64,000 bases of DNA from an uncultured Chloroflexia bacterium (GCA_963842805.1 CAWJIA010000011.1:23649-87648), one strand, 5' to 3'. Shown: positions 16,284-37,835, counted from the first letter of the stretch. Notes: a model not told the origin generated them from the sequence alone. Program-made: numbers and translations.

Positions 16284-18888
16284 TAAGCAATCGAAGAATT
16301 ATCTATCGGACCCAATGCGCAATTACGTTGCGAAGACCGTCTTTACATACATGCAGACACTGGGGTTGGCCGACAGGCATCAGCAGGAAGACCTGACAGA
16401 GCAAGTAATTTTGAGGTTGGAGAAGAGTATGTCTCTTGAAGAACACACAAAAACTAAAAAAGTGGAACGCACTTTCCCCGGTATGGAAAACCTCGTAGCT
16501 TCATTGGCTCCCCAACCGCCCGGCAAGGAACAGATAGAGTCCGTGGTCAATGAACTTCTGGCAGAGAAAGCCGGCTCAAAGGCCTCGGTAGAAAGCCCCC
16601 CTGTCACGCCTTCGGCCGCTCCTGTTATCGCGCCCGCCGCCAGTGAACTAAAGCTAACTGAGAATGCTCTGATAGTCCTGGAGAAAAGATACCTGCAAAA
16701 AGATGGCCAGGGAAATGTTATAGAGACTCCCGAAGAGTTGTTCCACCGGGTCAGCAGTTACATTGCTTCCGCTGAGCTTGTGTTTGATAAATCTGCCAGG
16801 ATTGCCGAGTGGGAAGCCAAATTCTACAGTCTCATGACGTCGCTGGAATTCCTGCCCAATTCACCCACTCTCATGAATGCTGGCCGCGAGCTGGGACAAC
16901 TATCGGCCTGCTTTGTGCTGCCAATCGATGACACCATGGAGTCAATCTTCGATGCCGTTAAATATACGGCTCTGATTCATAAAAGCGGTGGAGGAACAGG
17001 CTTTTCCTTCTCACGCATCAGACCCAAGAAGGACAGGGTAGGATCTACGGGAGGCGTCGCCAGCGGACCTGTCTCTTTCATGCGCGCCTTCGATACAGCA
17101 ACAGACGTCATTAAACAGGGTGGCATGCGCCGCGGCGCCAACATGGGCATATTGAATGTAGACCACCCGGATATCCTGGAATTCATCTCATCCAAGGAAG
17201 ACCTGAAAGCATTTACGAATTTCAACATCTCGGTAGCTATTACCGACCATTTTATGAAGGCTGTGGAGCAGAATACAGACTACGATCTGATCAATCCGCA
17301 TAACAAGGAGGTTGTGGGCAAGCTTAACGCCAGGGAGGTCTTCAGCAAGATAGTAGACATGGCATGGAGAACAGGCGACCCCGGCGTAATCTTCCTGGAC
17401 AGGATAAATGAATCTAACTCAACTCCCAATCTGGGCAAAATAGAAAGCACCAACCCCTGCGGTGAACAACCTCTGTTGCCATATGAATCATGCAATCTGG
17501 GATCGATCAATTTATCAAGGATGGTCAAACGGGTCAACAGCCATAGCGAAATAGACTATGATAAGCTCAGGGAGGTTATCAAGCTGGCCGTGAGATTTCT
17601 GGATGATGTGATCGAGGTCAATAAGTTCCCTCTGCCCCAGATCGGGGAGATGACCCGTAAAACCCGCAAGATCGGGCTGGGGGTGATGGGTTTCGCCGAC
17701 ATGCTTATGCAGTTGCAGATACCATACAACTCGGATAGGGCGCTTGAAACTGCCGAGAGGGTAATGCGTTTCGTTTCGGAAGAAGCCAGTAAGGAATCCG
17801 AATCGCTAGGAAGGTCCAGGGGAACCTTCCCTGCTTTCAACGGCAGCATATATGACACCAGGAACGGACCCAGGGTGAGAAATGCCAACAGGACCACCAT
17901 CGCTCCTACCGGCACCTTAAGCATTATAGCCGGTTGCTCCAGCGGTATCGAGCCGATATTCGCCTTAAGTTACTTCCGCCATATACTCGACGGGCAGACA
18001 TTAATAGAGATCAACCCCTATTTTGAAGAAGCGGCAAAGAAGGATTGTTTCTATTCAGCCGATCTCATGAAAAAGCTGGCGGAGGGAGGGAAATTAAATG
18101 ACATTCCGTCAGTGCCCGCGCAGGTCAAGGATGTTTTTGTAACCTCGCATGACATCTCGCCCGAATGGCATGTGAAAATCCAGGCTGCCTTCCAGAAATA
18201 TACAGATAGCGCCGTTTCCAAAACGGTGAACCTGCCTCACGAAGCTACCGTAGAAGACGTGCAAAACGTTTATCTGATGGCTTACAAGCTGGGATTGAAA
18301 GGTATCACAATTTACAGAGACAGGAGCCGCGACAGCCAGGTATTGAATACGGGCCAGAAAGAACCCGTTACAGAAAAGGAAAAGAGGACGGACAATGAAG
18401 CCGAGGCCGAAGCCAGGCTTTCTCCTCGCCAGAGGCCCAAGATCACCAGGGGCATTACTGAGCGTGTAACCACTGGGTGCGGTTATATTTATGTGACCGT
18501 CAATTTTGATGATAAGGGAATATGTGAAGTTTTTTGCAGCCTGGGTAAAGCCGGAGGCTGTGCTTCCGCACAGCTTGAAGCTACCAGTCGGCTCATTTCG
18601 CTTATTTTCAGATCGGGCATCGATGTCAGCTCAGTCATAAAACAGCTGCGAGCCATCAGATGCCCTTCCGTTTCCTGGGAGCACGGACGTGCCATATTAT
18701 CCTGCGCAGATGCTATCGGCAGCGTATTGGAAAAATACGTAAAAAAAGATGATGACATCGTGCCCATAAAAAGTATCAGCCAGTCTACCGGAAGCTCTAC
18801 CGGGCAATGCCCCGACTGCGGAAATCTGCTTGTTTATCAAGAGGGCTGTCACATTTGCCCGAGTTGCGGCTATACTAAATGCGGATGA
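16276..18888 (+). CDS. nrdJ: Adenosylcobalamin-dependent (class II) ribonucleoside-triphosphate/diphosphate reductase with ~110-aa N-terminal extension and C-terminal zinc ribbon
   Basis: Conserved class II core (FLPNSPTLMNAG, SACFVLP, GGGTGFSFSRIRP, NPCGEQPL, ...TIAPTGT); C-terminal CPDCG...CPSCG; start may be a downstream Met (e.g. MSLEEH) because the annotated start overlaps nrdR. Confidence 0.85.
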   Translation: MVNKQSKNYLSDPMRNYVAKTVFTYMQTLGLADRHQQEDLTEQVILRLEKSMSLEEHTKTKKVERTFPGMENLVASLAPQPPGKEQIESVVNELLAEKAGSKASVESPPVTPSAAPVIAPAASELKLTENALIVLEKRYLQKDGQGNVIETPEELFHRVSSYIASAELVFDKSARIAEWEAKFYSLMTSLEFLPNSPTLMNAGRELGQLSACFVLPIDDTMESIFDAVKYTALIHKSGGGTGFSFSRIRPKKDRVGSTGGVASGPVSFMRAFDTATDVIKQGGMRRGANMGILNVDHPDILEFISSKEDLKAFTNFNISVAITDHFMKAVEQNTDYDLINPHNKEVVGKLNAREVFSKIVDMAWRTGDPGVIFLDRINESNSTPNLGKIESTNPCGEQPLLPYESCNLGSINLSRMVKRVNSHSEIDYDKLREVIKLAVRFLDDVIEVNKFPLPQIGEMTRKTRKIGLGVMGFADMLMQLQIPYNSDRALETAERVMRFVSEEASKESESLGRSRGTFPAFNGSIYDTRNGPRVRNANRTTIAPTGTLSIIAGCSSGIEPIFALSYFRHILDGQTLIEINPYFEEAAKKDCFYSADLMKKLAEGGKLNDIPSVPAQVKDVFVTSHDISPEWHVKIQAAFQKYTDSAVSKTVNLPHEATVEDVQNVYLMAYKLGLKGITIYRDRSRDSQVLNTGQKEPVTEKEKRTDNEAEAEARLSPRQRPKITRGITERVTTGCGYIYVTVNFDDKGICEVFCSLGKAGGCASAQLEATSRLISLIFRSGIDVSSVIKQLRAIRCPSVSWEHGRAILSCADAIGSVLEKYVKKDDDIVPIKSISQSTGSSTGQCPDCGNLLVYQEGCHICPSCGYTKCG

Positions 18889-24038: not shown

Positions 24039-24344
24039 ATGAAATTATTTAAATCAGCACAAAAGGGTTTTACGCTAATCGAGTTGTTGGTGGTCATTTC
24101 CATCCTGGGTGTGCTCGCCGCTGTGGTAATACTGAACGTTACCAAGTACATGAGCGCTGGTAAGGAGCAGGCTGCGGCAACCGAGCTGGCCAATGTACAG
24201 ACGGCAGTATCAGCCTATATGTATGACAACACCGGCGCCGTCCCGTCCGGTCAGGCGGCACTATCCCCCTATTTCCTGGGCTCGCCGCATGGAACCTATT
24301 CCATTGACACGTACGGCAAGGTAACCCAGACATCCTACCCGTAA
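24039..24344 (+). CDS. pilA: Type IV major pilin (prepilin-type N-terminal cleavage/methylation domain)
   Basis: 101 aa; leader MKLFKSAQKG followed by FTLIELLVVISILGVLAAVV class III signal peptide. Confidence 0.85.
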   Translation: MKLFKSAQKGFTLIELLVVISILGVLAAVVILNVTKYMSAGKEQAAATELANVQTAVSAYMYDNTGAVPSGQAALSPYFLGSPHGTYSIDTYGKVTQTSYP

Positions 24345-24423: not shown

Positions 24424-25494
24424 TCATGGAAACCCATTATCCGACCTCAATATTTTGTTTATATCGTCTGCATCCTGGCAGAAGGCATATACCGATTCCC
24501 GCGATATTACCTTTTTCCTGAACAGGTCTACCAGCGCGTCATCCAGCGTCTTCATCCCCAGATTGGCGCTGGTGCGAATGGTGTTGGGAATCAGGAAAGG
24601 TTTCCCCTCCCTGATAAGGTTTTTAACAGCCGCGGTGGCCAGCATGATTTCCACGGCAGCCACACGTCCTCCGCCTATACGCGGCACCAGCACCTGGCAG
24701 AAAACCGCCAGTAGCGTTGATGCCAGCCTGGCCTGGGCCATCTGCCTCTCATGGGGCGGGAACAGGTCCACAATCCTCTCAACGGATTGGGCTGCGCTGG
24801 GAGCATGCCCGGTGGATAGCACCAGATGGCCTGTTTCGGCTACGGTCAGGACGGCGGAGGCCGTCTCAAGGTCCCTCATTTCACCTACCAGTATCACATC
24901 CGGGTCCTGCCTCAGCACATACTTTAAAGCATTAACGAACGAATGTGTATCCTGATCGAGCTCCCTCTGTGAGAAGGCGCATTTAAGGCCGGGGTGAACG
25001 TATTCGATAGGGTCTTCGATGGTAACGACATACCTCTGCAGCGAGTGGTTAAGGTGATTGAACATAGCAGCAATGGTCGTGCTTTTACCTGAGCCGGTGG
25101 GGCCGGTAACCAGTATCAGGCCCCTGGGACGTATTATCAGCTCCTTGGCAATATCCGGCAGCCCGATCTCTTCTACCGTCGGTATATGGTCCGACAAAAT
25201 ACGTATGGCCAAACTGATCGAGCCCTGCTGCCAGCAGGCATTACACCGGCCGCGCCCACCACCGGGAAGCTCATGCGCAAAATCAACTTCCAGCTCGCTC
25301 TTTAACAAATCCCTCAAATGCGTATTCGCGACCTGGTGAAAGAGGCGCTCTATTTCCTCGCCCGCCATGATCCCGAACTCGGGGAACGGCTTTAACTCGC
25401 CGTCAATCCTCAATATGGGAGGTACGCCTGCTACCAGATGGAGGTCGGAGCCTTTTTTATCTTGTGCCAGCTTTATCAAATCCTGGATATTCAT
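24424..25494 (-). CDS. pilT: Type IV pilus retraction ATPase PilT
   Basis: 356 aa; Walker A GPTGSGKST, ...GHLVLST, PilT-type AIRNLIRE-like motif (AVKNLIREGK). Confidence 0.9.
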   Translation of the reverse strand: MNIQDLIKLAQDKKGSDLHLVAGVPPILRIDGELKPFPEFGIMAGEEIERLFHQVANTHLRDLLKSELEVDFAHELPGGGRGRCNACWQQGSISLAIRILSDHIPTVEEIGLPDIAKELIIRPRGLILVTGPTGSGKSTTIAAMFNHLNHSLQRYVVTIEDPIEYVHPGLKCAFSQRELDQDTHSFVNALKYVLRQDPDVILVGEMRDLETASAVLTVAETGHLVLSTGHAPSAAQSVERIVDLFPPHERQMAQARLASTLLAVFCQVLVPRIGGGRVAAVEIMLATAAVKNLIREGKPFLIPNTIRTSANLGMKTLDDALVDLFRKKVISRESVYAFCQDADDINKILRSDNGFP

Positions 25495-25528
25495 CTATGG
25501 CCTTTGGATCTCCTTGAGGTTCTGCTTT

Positions 25529-26938
25529 TTACCTGTCCGCTGTCAGGGTAATCTCAAATTGCGTTTGATTGTATGATGTGCTGGTTATGGAAGTCACATC
25601 TACCTTCTTATAATTTCCATTCTGCTTGAGGTTGCGGGCATAATCGAGCACCATATCCCCGTTGGGAGCTGTGCCCTGGACCACTATGCTTTGGCCATCA
25701 TCGTGGATGGACGTCAAATACATAAATCCAGGCAGGGGAGCCATTAAATCGCCCCAGTCCCTGTTGATAGAAGCTCTCTCCTGCGCCAGATAATCCAGCG
25801 GAGCTTTTAAGGCATTAAGTGTTTGCTGGTACTGGTCGCGTTGTTGGGCGGCTTTATCTCCCTGCTCTTTGACATTTTTCTGCGTATCCACAACCTGCTT
25901 TGTTTTCTCATTGACCAGCATTTGCAGGCTATTATTCTGTGCGGCTGTCGAGCTATAAAGGACATAGGTGGCAATAAATATTACTGAAGCAAGGGCCAGG
26001 GCGAAAAGTGGAAGCGTGCTGGTTCTGGCCGCAGGTTTAGCAGCGGCCAGCCGGGGCATGACATCGATATTGACCCTCATCAGCCTGGCCGCGGCGCCGG
26101 TACCCCTCAGGGCCATACCGGTATTGGCGGCAAACCTGCCCTCATCGGCCCCGGCGGGATAAACCAGCTTAGAAGGCAGAGGTCTTATACTGTACGGAAT
26201 AACCTGCGCCAGGCCCTCGCTCAGATCGCCGCTCAGGAAGCACCTTGCATTCTTGTCCAATTGCCTGTCGGCATGGCTGGAATTATAAAAATTGACCGTC
26301 CTGATAATTTCATCGTTGATGATGGATATTTTATCGGGCTGGCTCATGTCTGTTTGAGCAAAAGTCAGGCTGCGCATCAGCTCGGGTATCCCCGAGTCCA
26401 GCACGCTGATATCAAAGCCGTTTACCTGGACATTGACCACCACGGCGGTCTGTTCATCCACCACCCGGTCTACGGCCAGCGGCTTAAGCTCCAGCGATTT
26501 TAGCCTCAGGCCGCACAGCTTCAGGGTATCTATCACCGAGTCGACATTATCACGGGGCAAACCCAGCAAGCACAGTGCCGATTCAACACCCGATATTTTG
26601 ATGTCCTGCCAGGATGTATAAAGGGTTTCCAGCGGGACGGGACTGACGCGTTCCATCTCTTTCCGGGCGGCCTCCGCCAGCAAACCCCTTTCGAGCCTGG
26701 GCACATATACCACCCGGTAAATTGAGTGCACGCCGCTCACGCAGGCTATGGCTTCCCTCTCGCGGATATTGTTGGTGGTAAGCAGGTTAATGATTTGCTG
26801 ACTTACGGAATCTTTATCAATAACCACTCCATTCTGCACCCAACCGGCCGTCAAATTCCCTTCAACGGCGGAAATCACCCGTTTGCCGCTGACCCGGGTT
26901 ATCCTTACCGAATCATCTTCAATATTAAGCGTTAACAT
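25529..26938 (-). CDS. Fused PilM (actin-like) - PilN (TM + coiled coil) pilus alignment protein
   Basis: 469 aa; N-terminal ~300 aa PilM-like; then TM segment LFALALASVIFIATYVLY and Gln-rich coiled coil plus C-terminal domain typical of PilN. Confidence 0.7.
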   Translation of the reverse strand: MLTLNIEDDSVRITRVSGKRVISAVEGNLTAGWVQNGVVIDKDSVSQQIINLLTTNNIREREAIACVSGVHSIYRVVYVPRLERGLLAEAARKEMERVSPVPLETLYTSWQDIKISGVESALCLLGLPRDNVDSVIDTLKLCGLRLKSLELKPLAVDRVVDEQTAVVVNVQVNGFDISVLDSGIPELMRSLTFAQTDMSQPDKISIINDEIIRTVNFYNSSHADRQLDKNARCFLSGDLSEGLAQVIPYSIRPLPSKLVYPAGADEGRFAANTGMALRGTGAAARLMRVNIDVMPRLAAAKPAARTSTLPLFALALASVIFIATYVLYSSTAAQNNSLQMLVNEKTKQVVDTQKNVKEQGDKAAQQRDQYQQTLNALKAPLDYLAQERASINRDWGDLMAPLPGFMYLTSIHDDGQSIVVQGTAPNGDMVLDYARNLKQNGNYKKVDVTSITSTSYNQTQFEITLTADR

Positions 26939-26953
26939 TTTTTCATGACGTTC

Positions 26954-27553
26954 TCATTGATTAGTACAAAACACCGTCAATGTAATAGTGGCCTGGTCCG
27001 GAAGCCCCTGGGCCTGAGCAGGCTGCATGGTTATATCCGTAGCTACGCTGGACGGCAAAGTTTTATCCAGGTCCCTAATGAAATTCAGAAAATTCTGGAT
27101 CCAGCCATTCATGCCCAGTGCATAAATAGTCACTGGATAGTCTGTTCCCTGTATTTGAGACGTGCCAGATGAGATGGACATGGAAGTGATGGTAATATCA
27201 TATTGAAATGCCAGGTTGATCAATTTCTGCGCTGTCTCGACGCTGTCGCAGGCATTCCCGTAAATTGCTCTCTGAGCGGCGATGTCGGAGCTTAATTTGC
27301 TTATTTCACTGTCCACGGAGGTCTGCGCAGTTAATTGCCCTTGGAGATTATTGTACTGCGTGCCCAATTCCGCCAGCCTGTTATTTAAGGCGCTCTGCCT
27401 GTAGATCTCGTCCGAGTAGGACATCGCGATGGGCACGATAGCCATCAGAAACAGGGCGCCTACTATGATCAGCCAGACGGACGTGCTCAGGCGGGGTAGC
27501 CTTTGCAACAGGCTACTCGTGGCACTTTTGGAATAATTAGCGGGTGGACGCAA
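26954..27553 (-). CDS. PilO-like pilus assembly protein (N-terminal TM, coiled coil, C-terminal domain)
   Basis: 199 aa; TM VWLIIVGALFLMAIVPIAM followed by coiled-coil RLAELGTQYNNLQGQL. Confidence 0.6.
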   Translation of the reverse strand: MRPPANYSKSATSSLLQRLPRLSTSVWLIIVGALFLMAIVPIAMSYSDEIYRQSALNNRLAELGTQYNNLQGQLTAQTSVDSEISKLSSDIAAQRAIYGNACDSVETAQKLINLAFQYDITITSMSISSGTSQIQGTDYPVTIYALGMNGWIQNFLNFIRDLDKTLPSSVATDITMQPAQAQGLPDQATITLTVFCTNQ

Positions 27554-27638
27554 TTCTATTTATTCCTACCAGCCTATTGCGCATATTATACATTAAATAA
27601 GTCTGTTTTAACCCGTCTCTCTATTTTAACAGAGTATC

Positions 27639-28889
27639 TCACTGATAATTGTAGCCAATTAAAAGGGGCGTACCACCCAGGCCTGCGCCGGGTATCTGGG
27701 TCTCCGAGTGGATGCCGCTCATGTACTTGATAATTGCGCTTCCTTGCATCGTGATGCTCTTGGCTATAACAGATCCGTACACGTAAGCGGAACCGCTCAG
27801 AGTGGCATCTGCATTGGGCGCATATATAACGGCTGCTACTTGTCCGCTGCCGCCGATAGTAACCGTAGTGCCCTGACAGATTATAAAGGGTATATTCCCT
27901 GCCACAAGGTTTGCGTTAGCGCTTCCGTCTAACGTTAGATTTCCTCCACATACAATTGTATACGCCCCATCCACTACGCCGCTATTTGCAATATGCAGGT
28001 TGCCCGTGCAATACACTGTGCCATTCAAATGGACTGTGACGCTGCCCCCTATGGTCAGGTCGCCGGTTATATAGGCCGGGCCCGGGAATGTATAAGTCCC
28101 ATAGCCCGGCACAGGGCTACTGCCGTAATGGGTGCCGGCGCTGGCCTGGTTGATGAAAGTCTGGACGTTAACAGTATATGAGACGGGGGCAGCGCTGGTC
28201 ACCGTGCTGCCGTCACACGTGCCGGTATTGCAGTTGCTGATCGTTGCCGTCCCGGTTGCCGATGCCACACCCTGCGCAGCAGTGCCTGAACCGCAGGTAT
28301 TGCAGGCAGAACAGCATGTGCCTCCTACCGTTGCACTTGGCGTTAAAGTTATATTCCCGTTGGCATAAATATTGCCATAGTTGCCGGCCTGCCTACCATC
28401 GGATAGTATATGGGCTCCGCCTGTCATCGAAAAATTACCATTGAGGCTGGCTGCTGCCTGGTTGAATATATTGTTGCCGGGCGCCGGAACCCGGATTAGC
28501 GCAATTACCTTTGCCCGGGTTTTACCGGCCGAGGCCGCGCTGGATGTAATCGTATAATTATCGTATGAGTTATCGGGAGCCCGGCTATCCGCCGCCGCTA
28601 CCGTCACCGTCATCCCGTTTATTGGATTAGGAATAGTAGGAAGATAAGTAGAAGTAATATTGTTGGGGTTTGTATTCCAGTACCAGTACAGTGCCTGGAT
28701 GCCCGAATCGGCCGCATAATAAGCCGCCATGTCCTGCTGAGCATTGGAGTTAATGGTCAGGAGTGAATACATGAACCCCAGCCCGGGCACAACTATTAAA
28801 GTTGCCGCAACAAGAAGTATCAAAGCCAGGGGCAATATCATGCCGCGCTCTTTACGGCCGATTTTTCTCAGAAACTTCTTAAATCTCAC
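27639..28889 (-). CDS. PilX_N-domain large minor pilin-like protein, Gly/Thr/Asn/Ser-rich beta-repeat body
   Basis: N-terminal hydrophobic anchor GMILPLALILLVAATLIV and AAYYAADSGIQ motif typical of PilX N-terminal domain; 416 aa. Confidence 0.6.
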   Translation of the reverse strand: MRFKKFLRKIGRKERGMILPLALILLVAATLIVVPGLGFMYSLLTINSNAQQDMAAYYAADSGIQALYWYWNTNPNNITSTYLPTIPNPINGMTVTVAAADSRAPDNSYDNYTITSSAASAGKTRAKVIALIRVPAPGNNIFNQAAASLNGNFSMTGGAHILSDGRQAGNYGNIYANGNITLTPSATVGGTCCSACNTCGSGTAAQGVASATGTATISNCNTGTCDGSTVTSAAPVSYTVNVQTFINQASAGTHYGSSPVPGYGTYTFPGPAYITGDLTIGGSVTVHLNGTVYCTGNLHIANSGVVDGAYTIVCGGNLTLDGSANANLVAGNIPFIICQGTTVTIGGSGQVAAVIYAPNADATLSGSAYVYGSVIAKSITMQGSAIIKYMSGIHSETQIPGAGLGGTPLLIGYNYQ

Positions 28890-29422
28890 AATGCACCCAA
28901 CTGCGGCGGCATCCTCTGGTAAAACTTGAATGTTATATTGTCGCTGGCATATTTATTTGTACCCAAACTTTTAGCCGCCCTTATAGTTAGTAAATATGTG
29001 TTATTCTCTGTAATCGTTGGATTGACCTTAATAAAAGAGGTACTGGCCGGGTCTATATATTGCGCGATGTATTTCCCGTTGCGCAGCAAGTTCCCATTGG
29101 TTATTCTATAGGTGACGGTGCTGCGAGTGAATGCGCTCCCGCTCCATTGATAGCAGGTCATCGAGCACAGGTTGCCTGGAGAGACGGCCGTTATATTGTC
29201 GGCGCTGGCAACGTCTTTAGCTATCGATGCTCCGGCCTGGTGGACCTGAGCCAGCACTATAGCCTGCGCCATACCGGAGCTCGTCACCCTGGTCGCCTCG
29301 CTGAATGTCAGGGCCATAACCGCGCTCGCCCCACCGATGATTGACAGGATAATAATAAGTTCAAGCAGTGTAAAACCCCTGCTCCACTTTGCAGCCGCAT
29401 TGCCCTTTTTAAAAATATTCAT
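28886..29422 (-). CDS. Minor pilin (prepilin-type N-terminal methylation domain)
   Basis: leader ...KWSRG then FTLLELIIILSIIGGASAV; ATGA overlap with upstream gene. Confidence 0.75.
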   Translation of the reverse strand: MNIFKKGNAAAKWSRGFTLLELIIILSIIGGASAVMALTFSEATRVTSSGMAQAIVLAQVHQAGASIAKDVASADNITAVSPGNLCSMTCYQWSGSAFTRSTVTYRITNGNLLRNGKYIAQYIDPASTSFIKVNPTITENNTYLLTIRAAKSLGTNKYASDNITFKFYQRMPPQLGAL

Positions 29423-29432
29423 ATTATGTAAT

Positions 29433-29903
29433 CTAATAGCCGATAATATATTCGGTCATTCCCGCCTCTTGCTTGTTATTATATTTAACGGTAACTGTCA
29501 CCTGCTGGATTTTGGGGTCGCTGTTATACGGCGATGCGCCTAGCGAAGCACCCTGCACGGTAACTGTATAGCCTGTATAACCCGGGGGAAGGCTGTTGTG
29601 AGAAGAATCCCAGGCCGGGTATCCGGGAGATCCACCCGGTATTGTATATGACCAGGGTGGCTTCCCAGCGGGTGTTCCAGCTTTGAGGATATTGGTCCAG
29701 TTGTCGCCGACAGACCTTACGTACTCCAACTCATAACGCGCCAGGCCCTCGGCTGTCATATTGGTGCGCGCAATATTATTGCCCTGGATGGTGGTATATA
29801 TACCGGCCACCAGGGTGACTCCTACAAAGCCCAGAATGGCGACGGCAACCAGGGCTTCCGCCAGGCTGACACCTCGCTCACCCCCAGCGCTTAACCACCG
29901 CAC
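29433..29903 (-). CDS. Minor pilin / pseudopilin (PilV-like)
   Basis: leader MRWLSAGGERG then VSLAEALVAVAILGFVGV. Confidence 0.65.
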   Translation of the reverse strand: MRWLSAGGERGVSLAEALVAVAILGFVGVTLVAGIYTTIQGNNIARTNMTAEGLARYELEYVRSVGDNWTNILKAGTPAGKPPWSYTIPGGSPGYPAWDSSHNSLPPGYTGYTVTVQGASLGASPYNSDPKIQQVTVTVKYNNKQEAGMTEYIIGY

Positions 29904-29907
29904 GCCT

Positions 29908-31122
29908 TTACCCTCCCCCCCCGACGACGCTGACGGCGGAGTAGATAGGCACGAAAATAGATAATGCCAGGAAGCCGACCACCAGGCCGATGGCTACGGT
30001 CATGGCAGGCTCGATCAAGCCCAGCAGCGTCTGCAGCTTGTCCGCCGCCTCAATTTCGAAGCTGTCCGAGACTACCGTCAAGGTGCTGTCGAGGTTACCC
30101 GTCTCCTCTCCCACCCTGGTCATCTCCACCATAAGCGGCAGGAAAACGTGCTTGCCCCTCATGGCCCCGGCCAGCGCCTCGCCCTTGATAATATCCTGCT
30201 CCACATCCCTGAGGGCTTGGGCGATAACCCTGTTGCCTGCCGAATCAGCTGTCAGAGTTAATATATCGGGCAGGGGCAGGCCTGACCTGAATAAGAGGGT
30301 AATGCTGCGACAGATGCGTGAAAGGGTGTTGAGCAGTATAAGCCTCCCCAACACCGGCAATCTCAATAAAAGGGCATCCTTCCGATAGGCGCCCTCAGGC
30401 GTGCGGGTGTATAGATAGCCGGCTACCCCCACTATGGCAATAGCCAACAATATGTATATGCCGTAGCTGGTGGCGAATGTAATCCCCCATATCAGTATCT
30501 GCGTGATGAGCGGCAGGTTGCCGCCCAGGTTTTTAAATACGGCCAGGATCGGCGGCAAAATAAAGGTGACCATAAGTATGGCCACCAGAATGGCCAGGAC
30601 CAGCACCACAGCGGGATAAGTTGTCGCCTGCTTGACCTTCCTCATAGCCGCCGTGGCCTGCTCGGAATAGCCGGCAAGGTTCCTCAATACGCTCTCCAAT
30701 TGGCCGGTCTGTTCGCCGACTGCAATAATCTTACAGAACATCTTGTTAAATGCCCCGGGGTGTTTTTCCAGGGCAATGGATAGCGCCAACCCTGCGCGCA
30801 GGTCGGTCACCACCTTGCCCAGCATGGCAGAAAAATTCTTATTGGCCGACTGTGCGCGCAGCAGGTCCAGGCTTTGTACGATCCCCACCCCTGACTCGAG
30901 AAGCAGGGCCAGCTGCCTGGAAAACATCACTACATCTTCCGGCTTGATTTTCGGCTGCATAAAAGAAGGCATGCCCGTGATGAAAGGGGTTATGGGCTTT
31001 ACATTAAGTATCTGGTACCCGTCGCGTAAAAGCGCGTCACCGGCGCTCTTCTCGCTGTCGGCAGTTATCCTGCCTTTTACCACCCGGCGGTCTACCGTAT
31101 ATCCGACATATTCGTATTCCAT
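29908..31122 (-). CDS. pilC: Type IV pilus inner-membrane platform protein PilC (GspF family)
   Basis: 404 aa with duplicated GspF-type domains and three TM segments. Confidence 0.85.
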   Translation of the reverse strand: MEYEYVGYTVDRRVVKGRITADSEKSAGDALLRDGYQILNVKPITPFITGMPSFMQPKIKPEDVVMFSRQLALLLESGVGIVQSLDLLRAQSANKNFSAMLGKVVTDLRAGLALSIALEKHPGAFNKMFCKIIAVGEQTGQLESVLRNLAGYSEQATAAMRKVKQATTYPAVVLVLAILVAILMVTFILPPILAVFKNLGGNLPLITQILIWGITFATSYGIYILLAIAIVGVAGYLYTRTPEGAYRKDALLLRLPVLGRLILLNTLSRICRSITLLFRSGLPLPDILTLTADSAGNRVIAQALRDVEQDIIKGEALAGAMRGKHVFLPLMVEMTRVGEETGNLDSTLTVVSDSFEIEAADKLQTLLGLIEPAMTVAIGLVVGFLALSIFVPIYSAVSVVGGGG

Positions 31123-31172: not shown

Positions 31173-32729
31173 TTAAGTGATGGAAAAGGCGTTCCTGAGG
31201 ACTTCATAGGGGGTGGTGATCCCGGCTTTGGCCTTCATCATGCCGTCTTTGGCAATAGTAACCAGGCCCTGGCTCAAGGCGGTGGCATGGATGTCCTGGT
31301 TGCCGGCGCCCGCCACGATCATGCGGCGCAGCTCATCGGTCATGGTCAATATCTCAAATATGGCGGTGCGACCCAGGTAGCCGGAATATACGCATTCCTT
31401 GCAGCCTGCGCCGTACATAAACTCCGTCCTGCTCTCGCCCATCTCCTTCTCATAAGCTATTTGCTCAACCAGCGGCGCCGTCACCTTGCGGGCGCAGTGA
31501 GGGCAGACGCGCCTTACCATCCTCTGGGCCACTATGCCTACCAATGCGGAGCTTATGAGGAACGGCTCAACGCCCAGGTCGATCAAACGGAAGAGCACCC
31601 CCACCGTCTCATTGGCGTGCACGGATGAAAGGACCAGATGCCCGGTAAGCGCCGACTGCACGGCGATCTGCGCAGTCTCGCTATCACGTATCTCACCCAC
31701 CAGGATCACATCCGGGTCCAGCCTGACGATGGAGCGCAGCCCGCCGGCAAAGGTCAGGCCCGCCTTGATATTTACCTGTATCTGATTAATATTCTCAAAG
31801 CGGTATTCGACGGGATCTTCGATGGTTATGATGTTTTTGCCCACGCTGTCCAGGGAGTTGACGGCTGCATACAGCGTTGTGGTCTTGCCGGCGCCCGTCG
31901 GGCCGCTGATCAGGACCATGCCGTAGGGCATCATCAACATCTTTTCATATTGCTCCTGGCTCTCCCTGAGAAAGCCGATCTGGGGAAGGGCCAGCGCCGC
32001 CATGGACTTATCCAGCAGCCGCAGCACACCCATCTCACCGTTGACGGTGTTGATGGTGGCCACACGCACATCGATCCGCTTGCCGGCCGCCTCGAAAGAG
32101 AACTGGCCGTCCTGCGGCCGGCGGTGGTCGGCAATATTCATGTCCGAAAGGATCTTGATGCGCGAAATCAAAGCGGTATGCACGCTCAGCGGCAGTGAGG
32201 CGACCTCATGTAAAATGCCGTCGATCCTGTAACGCACGCGCACCCTTATCTCATCCGGCTCGATATGTATGTCGGAGGCGCGTGACTTAACACCTTCCTC
32301 CAGCAGCCTGTCCAGCTGGCGCGCTATAGGTGTATCGGAAGCCTCATCCGCCATCGTGACATCGACTGACGCCTGGGCTGCGGAAGTACGATCACTACCC
32401 TTTCCTCCCTCTTTCAGCGTCCTGTAATTGTAATCAATGGCTTCCTTGATATCGGCCTCTGTGGCAGGTATCGGCTCAATCCTTTTTTTGGTATAGATCG
32501 ACAGGTTCTCTATGGTGAGTATGTCACTGGGATTGGCCATGTAGACGCGGCACGTGTTGCCGTCGAGGGATTGAGGCAGCACATTATATTTCCTGGCGAT
32601 ATCCTCGGGCACTAGTTGCAGCGCCTCCGGCATGGGCCCGTCCGACTGGACATTCAACCTAGCAATACCAGGCTTGGCCGACCCGCTGGCATTGGCCCGG
32701 CCCTTTGTTTCTTTAGAATCAGATGCCAT
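31173..32729 (-). CDS. pilB: Type IV pilus assembly ATPase PilB (GspE family)
   Basis: 518 aa; Walker A GPTGAGKTTT, tetracysteine motif CPHC...CKEC, GspE N-terminal domain. Confidence 0.9.
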   Translation of the reverse strand: MASDSKETKGRANASGSAKPGIARLNVQSDGPMPEALQLVPEDIARKYNVLPQSLDGNTCRVYMANPSDILTIENLSIYTKKRIEPIPATEADIKEAIDYNYRTLKEGGKGSDRTSAAQASVDVTMADEASDTPIARQLDRLLEEGVKSRASDIHIEPDEIRVRVRYRIDGILHEVASLPLSVHTALISRIKILSDMNIADHRRPQDGQFSFEAAGKRIDVRVATINTVNGEMGVLRLLDKSMAALALPQIGFLRESQEQYEKMLMMPYGMVLISGPTGAGKTTTLYAAVNSLDSVGKNIITIEDPVEYRFENINQIQVNIKAGLTFAGGLRSIVRLDPDVILVGEIRDSETAQIAVQSALTGHLVLSSVHANETVGVLFRLIDLGVEPFLISSALVGIVAQRMVRRVCPHCARKVTAPLVEQIAYEKEMGESRTEFMYGAGCKECVYSGYLGRTAIFEILTMTDELRRMIVAGAGNQDIHATALSQGLVTIAKDGMMKAKAGITTPYEVLRNAFSIT

Positions 32730-32756: not shown

Positions 32757-34118
32757 TTAACCTAAAGCGTCCGCCTTCTCGACATTTATGATTTTAATCT
32801 TCTGCTGGTCGGCGAATTGCTGGGCCTCTTTGGCCAGACCCGGCGAAGCCAGCAGTATCTTATCGTGGATTCCGATATCATAGGCCTTGGTATCATAGGC
32901 GGATACGGCTTCCAGACCGACCCCCTTGGGGTCCGCCAGGATGCCGATGGATATGGTATGCGTGAACAGGCCGTCGTCGTAATACGCGATGATATCCATG
33001 GTATATTCAGCGCCCGAGCGGCCGCGTATCCTGGCTTTTTCCTCCGTCCTGTAGCCCTGTTCGTGCAGGTATTTCAACAACTGTTTGCGGCTTTCAAATT
33101 TGAACGGCTTTTTATTCACGTTGCCCGGCAAGTTATCACCTGCACCCTTTAAGAATGTCTCCAGTTCGTCGGCATTGAACGATTTGATGCGCTGCCTCTG
33201 GGCAAATTGCCTGGCCTCGCTGTTTAGCCCGGGCATGGCCAGCAGGATCTTATCATGTATACCCAGGTCATAGGCCTTGTTATCGAACCTGAATACGTCT
33301 TCGAGGCCGATATTTTCCGAGTTGTGCCCGATGGCTATGCCGATGCCCAGGATAAAGGTCAGGAAGCCGTCGTCACGCTCGGCCAGCATATCCAGCACAT
33401 GCGTGACGCCCGAACCGGACCCGCTGCTCGCCCTGGCCTTTTCAAATACCTTATAGCCCTGCTGTTCCAGGTAGGTGATAAACTTGGACTTGAAGCCCAT
33501 ATCGAATGTAAGCCAGTTCCTGCTCTGCTCGTTTAAAATGTAGGAGTTAATGGTCTGGACTTTAGCTTCTTCATCGGAGAAGAAGATGGAGCACTTAAGG
33601 CACTGCCACTTCATGGTGATCTCGGTGGACAGGCCGCCGCAACTCTGGCACTTATAATTCACTCCCAAGCTGCGGTAATCAGTCCCCAGGAATTTAAGCG
33701 GCTTCTTACAATGCGGGCAAACATATTTCCCGCCGGCGATAAACTCCTGTTCCAACCCGTTCTTTCCGCAGGCGAAGTGCTCCAGTATCCTCCCCTTGGC
33801 AACATTGCCCGACCCGCATTTAGGGCACCTCAAGCTGGGCCTCAAATTCATGGAATTACATACGGGGCAGAAGATCAGGCGCTCATAGAAGCGCCCTTCC
33901 AGCATGCGCTCTTGCACCAGGCTGTCCAGTATTTTTATAACCTCTTCCGAGGTCTTGCCCAGCGTCGCTTCAACCTGGGGATACACCGCGCCGGACTGCC
34001 TGGTGAAGTCGATAACCGGACGTATCTCCTCAATACGGCCTTCGATCATATCGTTGATAAGCTGCAGCACCTTGGGATCATGGGTTGCCGTTTGAGAAGA
34101 TTCTAATATCTCAATCAT
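32757..34118 (-). CDS. Uncharacterised lead gene of pilus operon: three CxxC zinc-ribbon pairs and a tandem-duplicated ~95-aa C-terminal domain
   Basis: 453 aa; CPVCNS...CPKCGS, CPHCKK...CQSCGG, CLKCS; repeats GYKVFEKARASSGSGSGVTHVLDMLAERDDGFLTFILGIGIA...DKILLAMPGLNSEARQFAQRQRIK and GYRTEEKARIRGRSGAEYTMDIIAYYDDGLFTHTISIGIL...DKILLASPGLAKEAQQFADQQKIK. Confidence 0.5.
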   Translation of the reverse strand: MIEILESSQTATHDPKVLQLINDMIEGRIEEIRPVIDFTRQSGAVYPQVEATLGKTSEEVIKILDSLVQERMLEGRFYERLIFCPVCNSMNLRPSLRCPKCGSGNVAKGRILEHFACGKNGLEQEFIAGGKYVCPHCKKPLKFLGTDYRSLGVNYKCQSCGGLSTEITMKWQCLKCSIFFSDEEAKVQTINSYILNEQSRNWLTFDMGFKSKFITYLEQQGYKVFEKARASSGSGSGVTHVLDMLAERDDGFLTFILGIGIAIGHNSENIGLEDVFRFDNKAYDLGIHDKILLAMPGLNSEARQFAQRQRIKSFNADELETFLKGAGDNLPGNVNKKPFKFESRKQLLKYLHEQGYRTEEKARIRGRSGAEYTMDIIAYYDDGLFTHTISIGILADPKGVGLEAVSAYDTKAYDIGIHDKILLASPGLAKEAQQFADQQKIKIINVEKADALG

Positions 34119-34421
34119 TTCTTTCCCCGCATATGCAAGCGCATAAATTGCTCATATATAAAATCGGCCACAGCTTGCTTCAAGAGCAAACAGCCGGCCC
34201 CCATGTTCGAGCTTGTTGATAATAGCTATGGCCTGCCCTGTGTTTTCACTGCATTTCAGATTCATTTAGCTTAATCTAGCATGCGATTTCGTATTTTGCA
34301 AATATCTCATTGTTTATGGTAGATTTCGACTAACTCTAATATAAATGAATTCCTGCCAAAAACTGTGCTGCTCTAGTACCAGGGACTAAAGTCCTATGTA
34401 TGATAAACTTGGCTACCGCAT

Positions 34422-37400
34422 ATGGTTATGCTTCTTTTACTGGTCCTGAGCATTTTAGATATATGTTCGTTCTGCCCGGCCGCCCATGCCGACAATACCA
34501 GTGGCAGGACGCTGACCTGGTCGGTGGTCAAGACACCGATTAACAATGGCCCCGACAACGTAATCTGCAGCCCTGGCGAGATCAACTCCATGGCCCTGGG
34601 CAACGGCGTGATCTATTGCGCCGATACGGCCAACAGCAGGCTGTTCCGCTCCGTGAACGGAGGATACAGCTTCACCGATATAAGCAGCGATCTTGCTGCC
34701 GCCGGGGCGAATTTACCGGTCTGGTCGGTGGCCGTAGCCCCGGATGATCCGAAATTTGTAGTGGTTGTCACCTTCACTACACTACCGTTGCCACCCAATC
34801 CAGGGCCTCAGCAGGTCTATGTATCCATCGATGGGGGAAACAACTGGCAAAATACGGGCCCTACAATTAACGGGGCAGGACCAGCTACAGACAAGATTGG
34901 AACAGACGAATATATAAGCTGCATAGACATATCCAGGTCATATGGCGCGTATCGCGATATCGCCATCGGCACACGCACCACTACAGCGACTACAGGAACC
35001 GGACAGGTATTAAATCTTAAGTACGGCTCTGCCGGTACGGGATGGTCTTCGCAGCCAGTCTTAACTGCAGCCATAACATCCCTTAAATTCTCCCCCAACT
35101 ACGGGTCGGATTCGACGCTGGCAGTTATCACGTGCAATCCTACTTCACCATTCCTCAACCTGGGGCAGCATGATACAACCACCAACTCCACGATCTGGAA
35201 TACACCGTATGGCGCTTACCCTATCCCGCTCGCCCCTGCGGCTTCAGGTGTGGTTCCAGGTGTGGTGATAGGAACCGACCTATCACTGCCGTCCGATTTC
35301 AACGCACAGAACCCCGCCCTGATGGGCTGTTTCGCCAGCATCCAATCCGACACAGCGTTCCAAGATTTTATGGGCAGGACCACTCAGACGGGTGTCTTTT
35401 ATATAAATACCTCTATCGGCGCCACGCCATTCACTATAACCCCCCCGCCGGTGGTCCCCCCGGGACTCCCACCGGGACGCCGCATTTACTCGATTGCCTA
35501 CAACGGCAGTGAGGCCAGTGGCATCCTGCTGGCTGGCGAGGCCACGGCCGACCCGGCTACCGCCATGGTCCCCGTCTATCAAAGCTCCAATGCCCAGTCG
35601 TTCAGCCCGGGTGCCGCCACCTGGACCAGCTCGCAGGACTATAACGATTATAAGTCGCCCACGGGCGGCGGGAATTCGGGCCGCGCCAACGCCATACTGG
35701 GCTGGGGCTATAACGGCGTTCCCTATTGCGCTACCAGCTCTGAAAACGACATTACAGGTGGAACAGCATGGGCAGTGGGTCAATGGCCTTTTTCAAAATC
35801 GCTTGGAGTCCCTCTTGATGAATCCGCCTTTTCATATAGCTCCAACGGCGGGCTGAGCTGGAACCAGATCGGCCTGATAGATACCAGCATCGATCAACTG
35901 TCCGATTCGGCCGCCCTTGAAGCTCCGCCCGATGCCACCCAGAGCAGCGTGCTCTACCTGTCTTCCCTTAATAAAAAGGGCGCGCCCAATAGCTTCGACA
36001 GCGTGTGGCGCTCTACCAGCGATACGCTGGGGGATCAATGGGAACGCATCCTGACCCGCACGACCAGTGACAGCGGAACGATCTTGCGTGTGAACGATAA
36101 GACGCCCGGTTCCACTGCCCTGATCCTGGGGGACCTGACCACGCCCAATATCATGTATACAGCAGATGAGGGCCAGAAATGGGAAACGGTATTTGCCGGA
36201 ATATCGTCCCTGCGCGATATCGCATTTAGGGATGAATCGACCATCTACGTACTTGAGGATTACCGGGTAAGGCAACTATCCATGGGAGACACCAACTGGG
36301 TGCCGGGGCAATTCGTCAACACGGATTTGCTGATACCCGCACATACCATATGTACCCCGCTGGTCAACCCTACCAGCGCAGATCTAGTCTTCGTAGGCTC
36401 AGGCATCTACACACTGGGAAACCCCGAGGCCTATGTAGCCTGGACCGATTTTTCTCAACCTTCGCCTAAATTCACCGCACTTAAAATGCTGCCGCAGAGC
36501 GGCAACGTGCATGTTATCGCGGACAGCAAGTACGACCAGAACAATATGATCTATGCGGCGGTAAACACTGATTTTAAGCCCAGCAGCGAGGGGGTTATTT
36601 ACAGGTGGACTGTAGGCACAAGCACTGACTGGGATGAACTGGAGCCGCTCAACCGCGCCTTTTTTGGGATCGCCATGGCCGGCGATGTGCTTTATGGCTC
36701 CTGGAACTTTGACACCACCACGCTACAGAACAGCGGGGGCGTGGACCGTACGCTCTCTCCCAGGGTCAAAGTGCCCCCGGCGCCCGATTGGGATGAGCTG
36801 AAAGACGGCCTCCCCATACCGCCCGCTATTAATTATCCCGTCGTCTTCACCCGCGAACCCACATCGCTCAAAATCTCCTCCAATACCAATAATACGCTGT
36901 GGTCAATCGATAACAGTGCAAATCCTTACAACTACGATAATAAGATAGGCTGCCTCTGGCAATTCATCGATTCGGTAGCCAGGGTAAGCCCCTGGCCCAC
37001 TGCGCCGCCCTCCGGCAGCTTCATCGGGGTGGATCCGGTGACGGGCAGGTCTCAACAGATTGATATTAAGTGGCGGCAACTGAAAGATGTCTTCGGTTAC
37101 GACCTGCTGATAGCCAAAGATGTGAATTTTACGACGCTTCTATCGGAGAACGCCACGAAGATTTTCAATATGGTCACGGTTGATAGCAAGACGGGTGCGT
37201 GGGTCATAGGGTGGGACAAGATGACGGGTAAGTGGATAGCGACGCTCGACCAATCACAGCAGTTGTCGCCGGGCGTATGGATACCCCCCGGTATATTGGA
37301 AGCCGGCCAGCCATACTACTGGAAAGTGAGGGGCAGCCGCAGCATAACTGGCGCCGCCATTCACAGCCTGTGGTCGCCGGTCATGTTTTTCTCGGTCAAA

Positions 37401-37835
37401 CCGGGTTTCGCTGTGAGGAGCAGCGTAAGCGGTCCCCAGCTCCTGGCACCCATCGACGGCGTCTGCCGGGACTGCCAGCCTACCGTCGGCTTTAGCTGGA
37501 CACCCGTTAAAAATGCCAAAAAATATGAATTCACCCTGGCTTATGATCAGGACCTCAAAAACGTAATTGTTCAGACTGTTACGACCACGACTGCATATAA
37601 ATATGAGGACCGGCTCGAGCCGGGCAGAATTTATTTCTGGCAGGTGAAAGCTGTGGCGCCGTTTGAAAGCGATCCCAGCCCTACAGGCACTTTCGTCATA
37701 GCCGGCAGCCGGCCCGTAATGCCCCTGGAGTCCCTGCCCCCGTCCTACCTGTGGATAGCTGTAATCATAGCCACGACCGTCATACTGGTTTTGATCATCG
37801 TCATATTCTTTTACAATTATATGCGCAGGTATTAA
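34422..37835 (+). CDS. BNR/Asp-box repeat cell-surface protein with signal peptide and C-terminal TM anchor (S-layer-like)
   Basis: 1137 aa; signal peptide MVMLLLLVLSILDICSFCPAAHA; Asp-box motifs SVNGGYSF, SIDGGNNW, SSNGGLSW, TADEGQKW; C-terminal LWIAVIIATTVILVLIIVIFFY + RRY. Confidence 0.7.
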   Translation: MVMLLLLVLSILDICSFCPAAHADNTSGRTLTWSVVKTPINNGPDNVICSPGEINSMALGNGVIYCADTANSRLFRSVNGGYSFTDISSDLAAAGANLPVWSVAVAPDDPKFVVVVTFTTLPLPPNPGPQQVYVSIDGGNNWQNTGPTINGAGPATDKIGTDEYISCIDISRSYGAYRDIAIGTRTTTATTGTGQVLNLKYGSAGTGWSSQPVLTAAITSLKFSPNYGSDSTLAVITCNPTSPFLNLGQHDTTTNSTIWNTPYGAYPIPLAPAASGVVPGVVIGTDLSLPSDFNAQNPALMGCFASIQSDTAFQDFMGRTTQTGVFYINTSIGATPFTITPPPVVPPGLPPGRRIYSIAYNGSEASGILLAGEATADPATAMVPVYQSSNAQSFSPGAATWTSSQDYNDYKSPTGGGNSGRANAILGWGYNGVPYCATSSENDITGGTAWAVGQWPFSKSLGVPLDESAFSYSSNGGLSWNQIGLIDTSIDQLSDSAALEAPPDATQSSVLYLSSLNKKGAPNSFDSVWRSTSDTLGDQWERILTRTTSDSGTILRVNDKTPGSTALILGDLTTPNIMYTADEGQKWETVFAGISSLRDIAFRDESTIYVLEDYRVRQLSMGDTNWVPGQFVNTDLLIPAHTICTPLVNPTSADLVFVGSGIYTLGNPEAYVAWTDFSQPSPKFTALKMLPQSGNVHVIADSKYDQNNMIYAAVNTDFKPSSEGVIYRWTVGTSTDWDELEPLNRAFFGIAMAGDVLYGSWNFDTTTLQNSGGVDRTLSPRVKVPPAPDWDELKDGLPIPPAINYPVVFTREPTSLKISSNTNNTLWSIDNSANPYNYDNKIGCLWQFIDSVARVSPWPTAPPSGSFIGVDPVTGRSQQIDIKWRQLKDVFGYDLLIAKDVNFTTLLSENATKIFNMVTVDSKTGAWVIGWDKMTGKWIATLDQSQQLSPGVWIPPGILEAGQPYYWKVRGSRSITGAAIHSLWSPVMFFSVKPGFAVRSSVSGPQLLAPIDGVCRDCQPTVGFSWTPVKNAKKYEFTLAYDQDLKNVIVQTVTTTTAYKYEDRLEPGRIYFWQVKAVAPFESDPSPTGTFVIAGSRPVMPLESLPPSYLWIAVIIATTVILVLIIVIFFYNYMRRY

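Follow-up and report, generated by a model that had tools for sequence, protein, structure and literature searches.

A TackOD1 protein with two inactive nuclease domains heads a bacterial type IV pilus operon and is a likely regulatory partner of export machines

The first gene of a type IV pilus operon in the window (the whole 64,000-nt stretch of DNA analysed here) encodes a 453-aa protein that, by its sequence matches, is a member of the TackOD1 family carrying two Mrr_cat domains. The protein is most likely a regulatory partner of export machines, namely pilus motors and synthases of sugar polymers. Our leading, if tentative, interpretation is that it resides in the cytoplasm, is stabilised by zinc and belongs to the type IV pilus motor as a regulatory or adaptor subunit, which would act at the protein level on PilB.

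According to the passages on the family in the earlier papers, TackOD1 dates from 2018, when it was described as an output domain of response regulators in TACK archaea, present also "in some bacteria" and obscure in function, with a pattern of 11 Cys, five CxxC and one HxxC (PMC5847659), and TackOD1/arCOG06883 proteins had been seen within type IV pilus loci of Thaumarchaeota (Galperin et al. 2018, PMC5847659; Makarova et al. 2016, PMC4858521). A literature search under the name TackOD1 or arCOG06883, or for Dehalococcoidia pili, returned nothing beyond these two papers. The family and its pilus link were thus already known from these passages; the inactive Mrr domains, the linkage to bacterial pilB, the fusion of the inactive domains to PilB and the link to family 2 glycosyltransferase (GT2) synthases are absent from them, the last three being new here.

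Results

A TackOD1 gene is the first gene of a complete pilus operon

The genes considered here are:
32757..34118, minus strand: whole gene for TackOD1 plus two inactive Mrr-type nuclease-fold (iREase) domains (ORF list, Pfam, homologs)
31173..32729, minus strand: pilB, extension ATPase with MshEN and T2SSE domains, the proposed partner (Pfam T2SSE E 8e-125, MshEN E 1e-16)
24424..31122, minus strand: the remaining operon, that is, pilC, three pilin-like genes, a PilO-like gene, a PilM-PilN fusion and pilT (Pfam, ORF list)

In the ORF list, the 453-aa frame starts at an ATG, which is preceded by the ribosome-binding stretch GGGGAAAG, and ends with a stop codon at 32757..32759, 27 nt short of the ATG of pilB at 32729; a scan of the window found no terminator-like site on the minus strand between the two genes. 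The order after the TackOD1 gene, all on the same strand, is pilB, pilC (T2SSF), three pilin-like genes, the PilO-like gene, the PilM-PilN fusion and pilT, and the major pilin gene and pilD (prepilin peptidase) follow a few kb past the operon. These downstream genes are a complete bacterial type IV pilus set, in which the PilO-like gene, having no Pfam match, is named by size and position only, and the PilM-PilN fusion contains a PilN domain above the Pfam cut-off and a PilM_2 match of 18.8 bits, under the cut-off of 27. Because the only sequence upstream of the TackOD1 gene is a 303-nt AT-rich spacer shared with the divergent gene for a 1137-aa secreted protein, it is the first gene of the operon. 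The original prediction had described a 453-aa product encoded directly upstream of pilB in the same orientation, by the first gene of a type IV pilus operon; the ORF and the 27-nt gap confirm the former, and the Pfam-confirmed downstream genes together with the divergent spacer bear out the latter.

More than 950 homologs of the protein were found, nearly all of those listed being 453 aa long, so that the gene is real and under constraint rather than a chance ORF. The close relatives come from metagenome-assembled genomes (MAGs) of Dehalococcoidia/Chloroflexota. As had been predicted, the protein is no standard component of pilus assembly: PilB, PilC, PilM/N, the PilO-like protein, PilT, PilD and the pilins are all encoded separately, and Pfam and NCBIfam gave no match to a known pilus assembly or regulatory family (PilM, PilN, PilO, PilZ, FimX and others) even at E <= 10. 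A replacement of PilM is ruled out by the presence of the PilM-PilN fusion and the PilO-like gene in the same operon.

The N-terminal part combines an acidic winged helix with a three-zinc module

The prediction had also called the protein uncharacterised and considered that it could be specific to this lineage. Its architecture does fit two named families, TackOD1 (PF18551), itself functionally uncharacterised, and, twice, Mrr_cat (PF04471). It is not lineage-specific, for members of the wider family are found in candidate division WOR-3, archaea, an alphaproteobacterial MAG and many metagenomes. The Pfam TackOD1 match scores 131.5 bits against a cut-off of 32 (E 3.5e-38) and aligns aa 15-194 with positions 8-187 of the 188-position profile. 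The N-terminal features are:
33879..34091, minus strand: acidic winged helix, aa ~10-80, within the Pfam TackOD1 model (structure model)
33531..33869, minus strand: beta-rich three-zinc module, aa 84-196, basic with pI 8.9 (sequence, conservation, charge)

The three CxxC...CxxC zinc-ribbon modules of the original prediction survive as three four-ligand sites, though not as three literal pairs, since the cysteine pattern consists of five CxxC (C84/87, C98/101, C134/137, C157/160 and C173/176) and one HxxC (H114xxC117). From ligand order and the strands of the structure model, the predicted zinc sites are C84/87/98/101, H114/C117/C173/C176 and C134/137/157/160. Across an alignment of 37 homologs, every one of the 11 Cys, and the His as well, is invariant or conserved in at least 90%. 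The first full-length structure model was poor in the zinc region (pLDDT 30-50); with a deeper, 90-sequence alignment, the N-terminal 205 residues were modelled at pLDDT 91.8. The helical region noted at the N-terminus is present and, by structure prediction and fold comparison, is modelled as a winged helix with a MarR/ArsR-like fold. Structure comparison found no significant solved structural analogue of the zinc module.

The zinc module is the only basic part of the protein. The winged helix has a pI of ~4.7 in the pilus clade, and both iREase domains are acidic. In the third helix of the winged helix, the net charge is -1 here and has a median of -3 in the pilus clade; among 90 family members, the net charge of this helix is negative in 78% and positive in no more than 6%, and the second and third helices are net-negative in ~80%.

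The cysteine pattern (11 Cys, five CxxC, one HxxC), the type IV pilus locus and the existence of REC-fused relatives are shared with TackOD1 as described in the passages of PMC5847659 and PMC4858521. The receiver is confined to relatives, as Pfam gives no Response_reg match in the 453-aa protein itself. Unlike the thaumarchaeal TackOD1 proteins of those passages, this one is bacterial (Dehalococcoidia), belongs to a PilB/PilC/PilM/PilT-type operon and bears two C-terminal inactive Mrr-type domains. Outside the winged helix, neither TFE-alpha/TFIIE-alpha nor the COG "Zn-ribbon and HTH transcriptional regulator" is matched significantly, and the protein differs from such factors in having three nested zinc sites rather than one and a winged helix that is acidic. 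Assignment as a ribosomal or HVO_2753-type zinc-ribbon protein was rejected, the likeness being limited to CxxC spacing (E 0.03-0.1).

The C-terminal repeats are nuclease-fold domains that lost the catalytic motif

The C-terminal half is made up of two repeats:
33144..33506, minus strand: inactive restriction-endonuclease-fold domain A, aa 205-325
32760..33098, minus strand: inactive restriction-endonuclease-fold domain B, aa 341-453, 43% identical to A, with SIGIL replacing the ExK strand

The tandem repeat anticipated in the original prediction is real, but its copies are ~115-120 aa long rather than ~95 aa and 43% rather than ~50% identical (122 aligned residues, E 7e-33). The repeated domain is a dead Mrr nuclease fold and not a new domain. 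Pfam Mrr_cat matches in two stretches at 38.4 bits against a cut-off of 21 (E 1.5e-9), the best being aa 347-447 in domain B, and the repeats have the PD-(D/E)xK restriction-endonuclease fold. A profile of 40 nuclease-fold domains from across the family aligns to AF1548 with E 1.4e-5; where AF1548 reads EIDVVAE...IECK, the canonical D...ExK, the family profile has v-i-D-i-v at the position of I-E-C-K. The first Asp is retained throughout the family (here D243 and D375), with a hydrophobic residue at the position of the catalytic Lys, and both copies in this protein also lack the Glu, which is replaced by Gly or Ser (ILGIG and ISIGI), so that neither contains the D...(D/E)-x-K triad. Because the Lys is lost family-wide and the Glu in both copies, the repeats are, judging by these residues, almost certainly Mrr-derived domains devoid of nuclease activity. 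Some relatives have weak Pfam matches to NA-iREase1, the "NACHT-associated inactive restriction endonuclease". A polar patch has stayed strongly conserved in the iREase domains, namely GxSG..H..D and F-D-x-K-A-Y-D-x-G-I-H-D-K.

An active nuclease or nucleic-acid factor with a non-canonical site, engaged in DNA uptake through the pilus or else a defence or restriction enzyme that lies beside pilB by chance, would agree with the above-threshold Mrr_cat match and the PD-(D/E)xK fold, and the first Asp with the conserved K281 and D284 on the next helix could in principle form a rearranged site. We nevertheless consider this highly improbable given the loss of the catalytic residues, the acidity of the domains and the strict synteny with pilB or GT2 genes, which is unlike that of a mobile defence gene. 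The naming of WOR-3 relatives as "restriction endonuclease" by NCBI also speaks for such an enzyme. A defence or restriction role was rejected: PADLOC gave no defence hit at E <= 0.01, and the locus contains no methyltransferase or other defence genes, its neighbours being pilus genes. Compared with Mrr-type type IV restriction endonucleases (Mrr_N winged helix plus Mrr_cat) and AF1548 (PDB 1Y88), the family lacks the Lys of (D/E)xK throughout and the two copies here lack the acid too; the domain occurs twice, an additional three-zinc module has been inserted, and the context is a pilus or GT2 operon rather than restriction-modification or defence.

Linkage to pilB is strict in related loci and PilB has captured the inactive domains

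In all 16 of 16 genome loci with 65-93% identity, the TackOD1 gene lies directly ahead of pilB, pilC and the pilin genes, as far as the contigs reach, and the gene for the large divergent secreted protein is kept in these 16 loci wherever upstream sequence exists. In five more loci, at ~46-50% identity, the TackOD1 gene is again ahead of pilB. Altogether, pilB is found downstream in 21/21 related Dehalococcoidia loci, either directly or after one to four small genes, which is why we favour a regulatory or accessory function connected with pilB.

The small intervening genes are characteristic of one lineage (L018-L021), where one to four of them separate the TackOD1 gene from pilB; with sub-threshold scores, they are probably Roadblock/LC7-like. 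PilB of this lineage is a 789-aa protein consisting of iREase x2, MshEN and T2SSE, its iREase pair being collinear with domains A and B, and the separate TackOD1-iREase x2 gene is still present upstream of the fused PilB. As far as can be read from the domain order, the dead-nuclease pair has been captured by PilB itself in this sister lineage. Among the best 150 cluster representatives at 50% identity, seven are iREase-PilB fusions with two or three iREase domains, some of them truncated; a word-index search with the PilB-fused module gave eight matches, too few to gauge the frequency of the fusion.

Relatives are fused to receivers and adjoin GT2 synthases

Domain architectures were counted in the same set, the best 150 representatives of clusters at 50% identity. 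The most common is TackOD1-iREase (76/150), followed by TackOD1 alone (18), an N-terminal REC followed by TackOD1 and zero to three iREase domains (18) and iREase x2 alone, including many fragments (18); TackOD1-iREase x2, the architecture of the protein studied here, accounts for 10, single iREase domains (fragments) for two and TackOD1-iREase with a C-terminal REC for one. A later Pfam scan detected REC in four representatives previously counted as REC-less, so that the true number of REC fusions is somewhat higher. The fusions to receivers mark TackOD1 out as an output domain in signalling.

A metagenome scan seeded with 511-aa and REC-fused relatives yielded 80 loci and sampled the GT2-linked clade only. 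Within it, 71 loci extend far enough downstream to be judged; in 64 of these 71, a processive GT2 synthase gene comes next on the same strand (median distance 136 nt), and in four more the GT2 synthase gene is convergent. The GT2 genes of the metagenomic loci resemble chitin, cellulose and PNAG synthases, and in many GT2 loci a polysaccharide deacetylase comes next or a UDP-glucose dehydrogenase is encoded alongside. The genes for distant TackOD1-only proteins immediately adjoin or run into a GT2 gene, the spacing being -4 to +3 nt (L026; L107, an alphaproteobacterial MAG; and L108). Such overlaps are more typical of subunits than of low-abundance regulators, which suggests the former. Because REC-TackOD1 proteins without iREase still abut GT2 genes, iREase is not a universal docking module.

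Constant linkage to pilB, a question raised along with the original prediction, is thus found in the 21 related loci, but many members of the wider family adjoin GT2 synthases instead. A wide distribution away from pilus loci together with an assigned unrelated function would have spoken against a pilus role; many homologs do lie outside pilus loci, and none has such an assigned function. Neither a pilus nor a GT2 link is seen in two types: one of 314 aa in WOR-3, encoded beside lspA and the gene for a BamD-like protein, and one of 375 aa, possibly archaeal. The lack of a tie to either machine in these two types counts against an adaptor.

The family's position ahead of the genes of two different engines, its REC fusions, the capture of iREase by PilB and the overlaps with GT2 genes mark it as a dedicated signalling partner of export engines. 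A more specific form of the adaptor interpretation casts the protein as a receptor. Its ligand would be a small molecule or a metal ion, with nucleotide second messengers and divalent cations held in the acidic pocket of the remnant nuclease as examples, and the protein would pass the signal on to PilB or to GT2 synthases. The two target classes are those of the c-di-GMP receptors MshEN and PilZ (PMC8669469), and the iREase domains retain the strongly conserved polar patch. Some TackOD1 proteins contain a weak, sub-threshold GGDEF-like region, and one adjoins genes for REC-EAL and Hpt; double-zinc-ribbon fusions to GGDEF are mentioned in the supplement of the original TackOD1 paper. On the other side, there is no match to any known nucleotide-binding family, including no Pfam match in the 453-aa protein to PilZ, MshEN or a degenerate GGDEF I-site domain, no ligand can be read from the sequence, and in the pilus clade of Dehalococcoidia Gly or Ser stands where the pocket would have its second acidic residue. 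We regard a receptor of this kind as quite unlikely.

Conserved elements upstream of the operon

Alignment of the regions upstream of the gene revealed three conserved elements in the spacer:
34273..34301, minus strand: predicted operon promoter, -35 TTGCAA (34301..34296), 17-nt spacer, TGc and -10 TAGATT (34278..34273) (upstream alignment)
34313..34327, minus strand: conserved box GAAATCTACCATAAA just upstream of the -35 (upstream-region alignment)
34374..34390, minus strand: imperfect inverted repeat TTTAGTCCCTGGTACTA that recurs upstream of the gene in several loci

The predicted promoter would give a leader of ~150 nt. It aligns in 11 of 15 upstream regions, where protein identity to the window's product is 65-93%, and the four most distant loci (L017, L018, L020 and L021) have a similar element of the TTGCAA/TTGCAG type that does not align; a consensus promoter scan missed this conserved promoter, which has 8/12 matches. 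The box GAAATCTACCATAAA occurs in a single copy in the window, which is not above chance. The inverted repeat, with the family form TAGTAC-N3/4-GTACTA, precedes the predicted transcription start by ~115 nt and is separated from the start of the divergent gene by 32 nt. It is seen in L004, L015, L017, L018, L020 and L021, down to ~46% protein identity, but is not visible in every locus (e.g. L006, L007 and L010). No second site was found in the window, including ahead of the major pilin gene or other pil genes. Because the repeat and the box each occur once in the window, no regulon can be defined. Taken as predicted from the alignments, the conserved upstream elements show that the operon is regulated.

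Some lineages encode a separate small HTH_17 protein right beside the inverted repeat; no homolog of this gene was found in the window. Rfam gave no match at gathering thresholds in the window and none at E <= 1 in 34050..34450, and a riboswitch or known RNA in the ~150-nt leader was rejected, as the leader also folds no better than shuffled sequence (z 0.09).

Transcription factor or protein-level partner

The conserved non-coding elements (the repeat at 34374..34390 and the box at 34313..34327) speak for the second-ranked interpretation, after the adaptor, under which the protein is a transcription factor. Its winged helix, its zinc module or both would bind an operator at the pil promoter, the iREase pair would serve in dimerisation or ligand sensing, and the protein would autoregulate the pilus operon and, in sister clades, a GT2 operon under the control of REC. 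Most receiver output domains bind DNA, and the REC-TackOD1 layout resembles that of classical response regulators. The combination of a winged helix with Mrr_cat also echoes what we take to be the layout of the DNA-binding enzyme Mrr, and the zinc module is basic (pI 8.9). A first-gene position ahead of two target operons is easily explained by a change of operator, and two unrelated targets of an adaptor, the PilB ATPase and a GT2 synthase, are less economical by comparison. The MarR/ArsR-like winged helix of the model, along with the basic zinc module, may likewise point to DNA binding and in this respect counts against an adaptor.

Against a transcription factor stand the would-be DNA-contact helices, net-negative in ~80% of family members, and the low pI (~4.7) of the winged helix that carries them; it is hard to see why the PilB ATPase should carry a fused DNA-binding or regulator domain, and the stop/start overlaps with GT2 genes suggest stoichiometric partners. 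The inverted repeat is present only once in the window and not ahead of the major pilin or other pil genes, and the HTH_17 protein encoded beside it in some lineages could be its binder. All in all, we consider a transcription factor unlikely. Action at the protein level is favoured because the winged helix and the iREase domains are acidic and a DNA-binding module on PilB is hard to rationalise. The original prediction proposed a regulator or a nucleotide- or nucleic-acid-binding accessory factor; a regulatory or accessory role tied to pilB stands, but nucleic-acid binding finds little support in view of the acidic domains and the lost catalytic motif.

Discussion

Under the adaptor interpretation, the TackOD1 gene would be co-transcribed with pilB, and the tandem of dead iREase domains would be a PilB-proximal docking or oligomerisation module. 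The TackOD1 part, with its acidic winged helix and basic three-zinc module, would be the effector or signal-receiving part and might control how active PilB is or whether PilB is brought to the PilM/PilC platform. The gene order, the domain folds, the lost catalytic motif, the fusions and the counts of neighbouring genes are observed, whereas that the protein physically binds PilB, in which direction it acts and that it does not bind DNA are what we infer. In sister lineages, processive GT2 exopolysaccharide synthases would have come under the control of the same kind of module, which is often itself subordinate to a fused REC.

The family could thus represent a portable switch for envelope polymer-export machines, with a logic like that of MshEN or PilZ. 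One module serving both classes of machine has a precedent, because MshEN regulates both the type IV pilus ATPases MshE/PilB and the GT2 synthase NfrB (PMC8669469). The likeness to MshEN and PilZ modules, which act on PilB/MshE ATPases and on the GT2 synthases NfrB and BcsA (PMC8669469), is one of logic only, namely that of a module fused or adjacent to both machine classes; there is no sequence or fold relationship, and the module considered here is usually a separate protein encoded upstream.

A broader proposal, possible although we hold it to be doubtful, is that TackOD1 proteins, with or without iREase, are widespread post-translational switch subunits that bind PilB-type ATPases in Dehalococcoidia and Thaumarchaeota and GT2 synthases in bacteria, linking them to two-component phosphorelays or to some ligand, with the dead Mrr domain repurposed for docking.

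Dehalococcoidia are abundant, mostly uncultured bacteria of the subsurface and sediments, and to our knowledge the type IV pili of Chloroflexota/Dehalococcoidia are essentially unstudied. The TackOD1 gene is the one conserved member of their pilus operon that has no counterpart in model systems. Its product provides a clear case of a restriction-endonuclease fold without catalysis that is reused outside defence, and the "restriction endonuclease" names attached to relatives in databases, such as the NCBI label on the WOR-3 proteins, are misleading and call for caution. Together, the TackOD1 identity, the iREase-PilB fusion and the GT2-locked sister clades lead to a testable hypothesis, that of a shared regulatory subunit for two surface-polymer machines. 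If the broader proposal is true, TackOD1 would be a previously unrecognised zinc-ribbon counterpart of the PilZ and MshEN systems.

Genes neighboring the pilus operon

The intergenic region upstream of the pilus operon is shared with a gene for a large protein of 1137 aa, and the two are divergently transcribed. Pilus genes in the window encode pilin-like proteins and a PilM-PilN fusion.

Pilus-linked genes and one additional ORF in the window
34422..37835, plus strand: 1137-aa protein, its N-terminus signal-peptide-like, its C-terminus carrying a hydrophobic anchor
27639..28889, minus strand: 416-aa pilin-like protein with a DUF7305/bactofilin-like/ice-binding-adhesin-like beta-helical region
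25529..26938, minus strand: 469-aa protein, PilM and PilN fused in a single chain
24039..24344, plus strand: 101-aa candidate major pilin, N-terminus KGFTLIELLVV
16276..18888, plus strand: 870-aa ORF ending in a CxxC...CxxC zinc-ribbon tail

The only family match of the 1137-aa protein is a faint one, of the Sortilin/BNR type. Its gene keeps the same position in all related loci with sufficient upstream sequence, at 46-73% identity, and the product may be a pilus-associated surface protein that is co-regulated with the pilus operon. The 416-aa protein probably functions as a large minor pilin or tip adhesin. The same PilM-PilN fusion gene (464-469 aa) also occurs in the related loci L017 and L020. 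The 101-aa protein is likely to be the major pilin; its gene lies outside the pilus operon, on the opposite strand and convergent with pilT. The 870-aa ORF, which by eye looks like a ribonucleotide reductase, is unrelated to the TackOD1 gene finding.

Variation among TackOD1 relatives and their loci

In the GT2-linked sister clade, where TackOD1 relatives are mostly encoded upstream of processive GT2 polysaccharide synthase genes, the third zinc site may be degenerate: in the aligned sequences (alignment A6; metagenome loci L027..L099) the final CxxC of this site is apparently replaced, with the consensus R.LKTG.

The lineage with a fused PilB (L018-L021) differs in gene content around the TackOD1 gene.

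Features of the fused-PilB lineage
L018 7553..7756, L020 6890..7093 and L021 3175..3396, all minus strand: small HTH_17 (excisionase/MerR-like) gene
L018 9661..12155, L021 5319..5750 and L020 9097..9525: small tandem paralogous genes (136-143 aa each) between the TackOD1 gene and pilB
L018 12264..14633: 789-aa PilB with two inactive Mrr-type domains N-terminal to MshEN and T2SSE

The HTH_17 gene is inserted beside the TackOD1 gene in divergent orientation, adjoining the conserved inverted repeat (TAGTAC-N3/4-GTACTA); no homolog was found within the window. The small paralogues, 1-4 per locus, occur in this one Dehalococcoidia lineage, and one of them resembles Roadblock/LC7 superfamily models below the threshold (MAPKK1_Int, E 7e-4; Robl_LC7, E 3e-3). 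Roadblock-like domains are included among archaeal response-regulator outputs (NitrOD3, PMC5847659). The 789-aa PilB itself probably arose when part of the neighboring upstream gene was duplicated and the copy then became fused to pilB.
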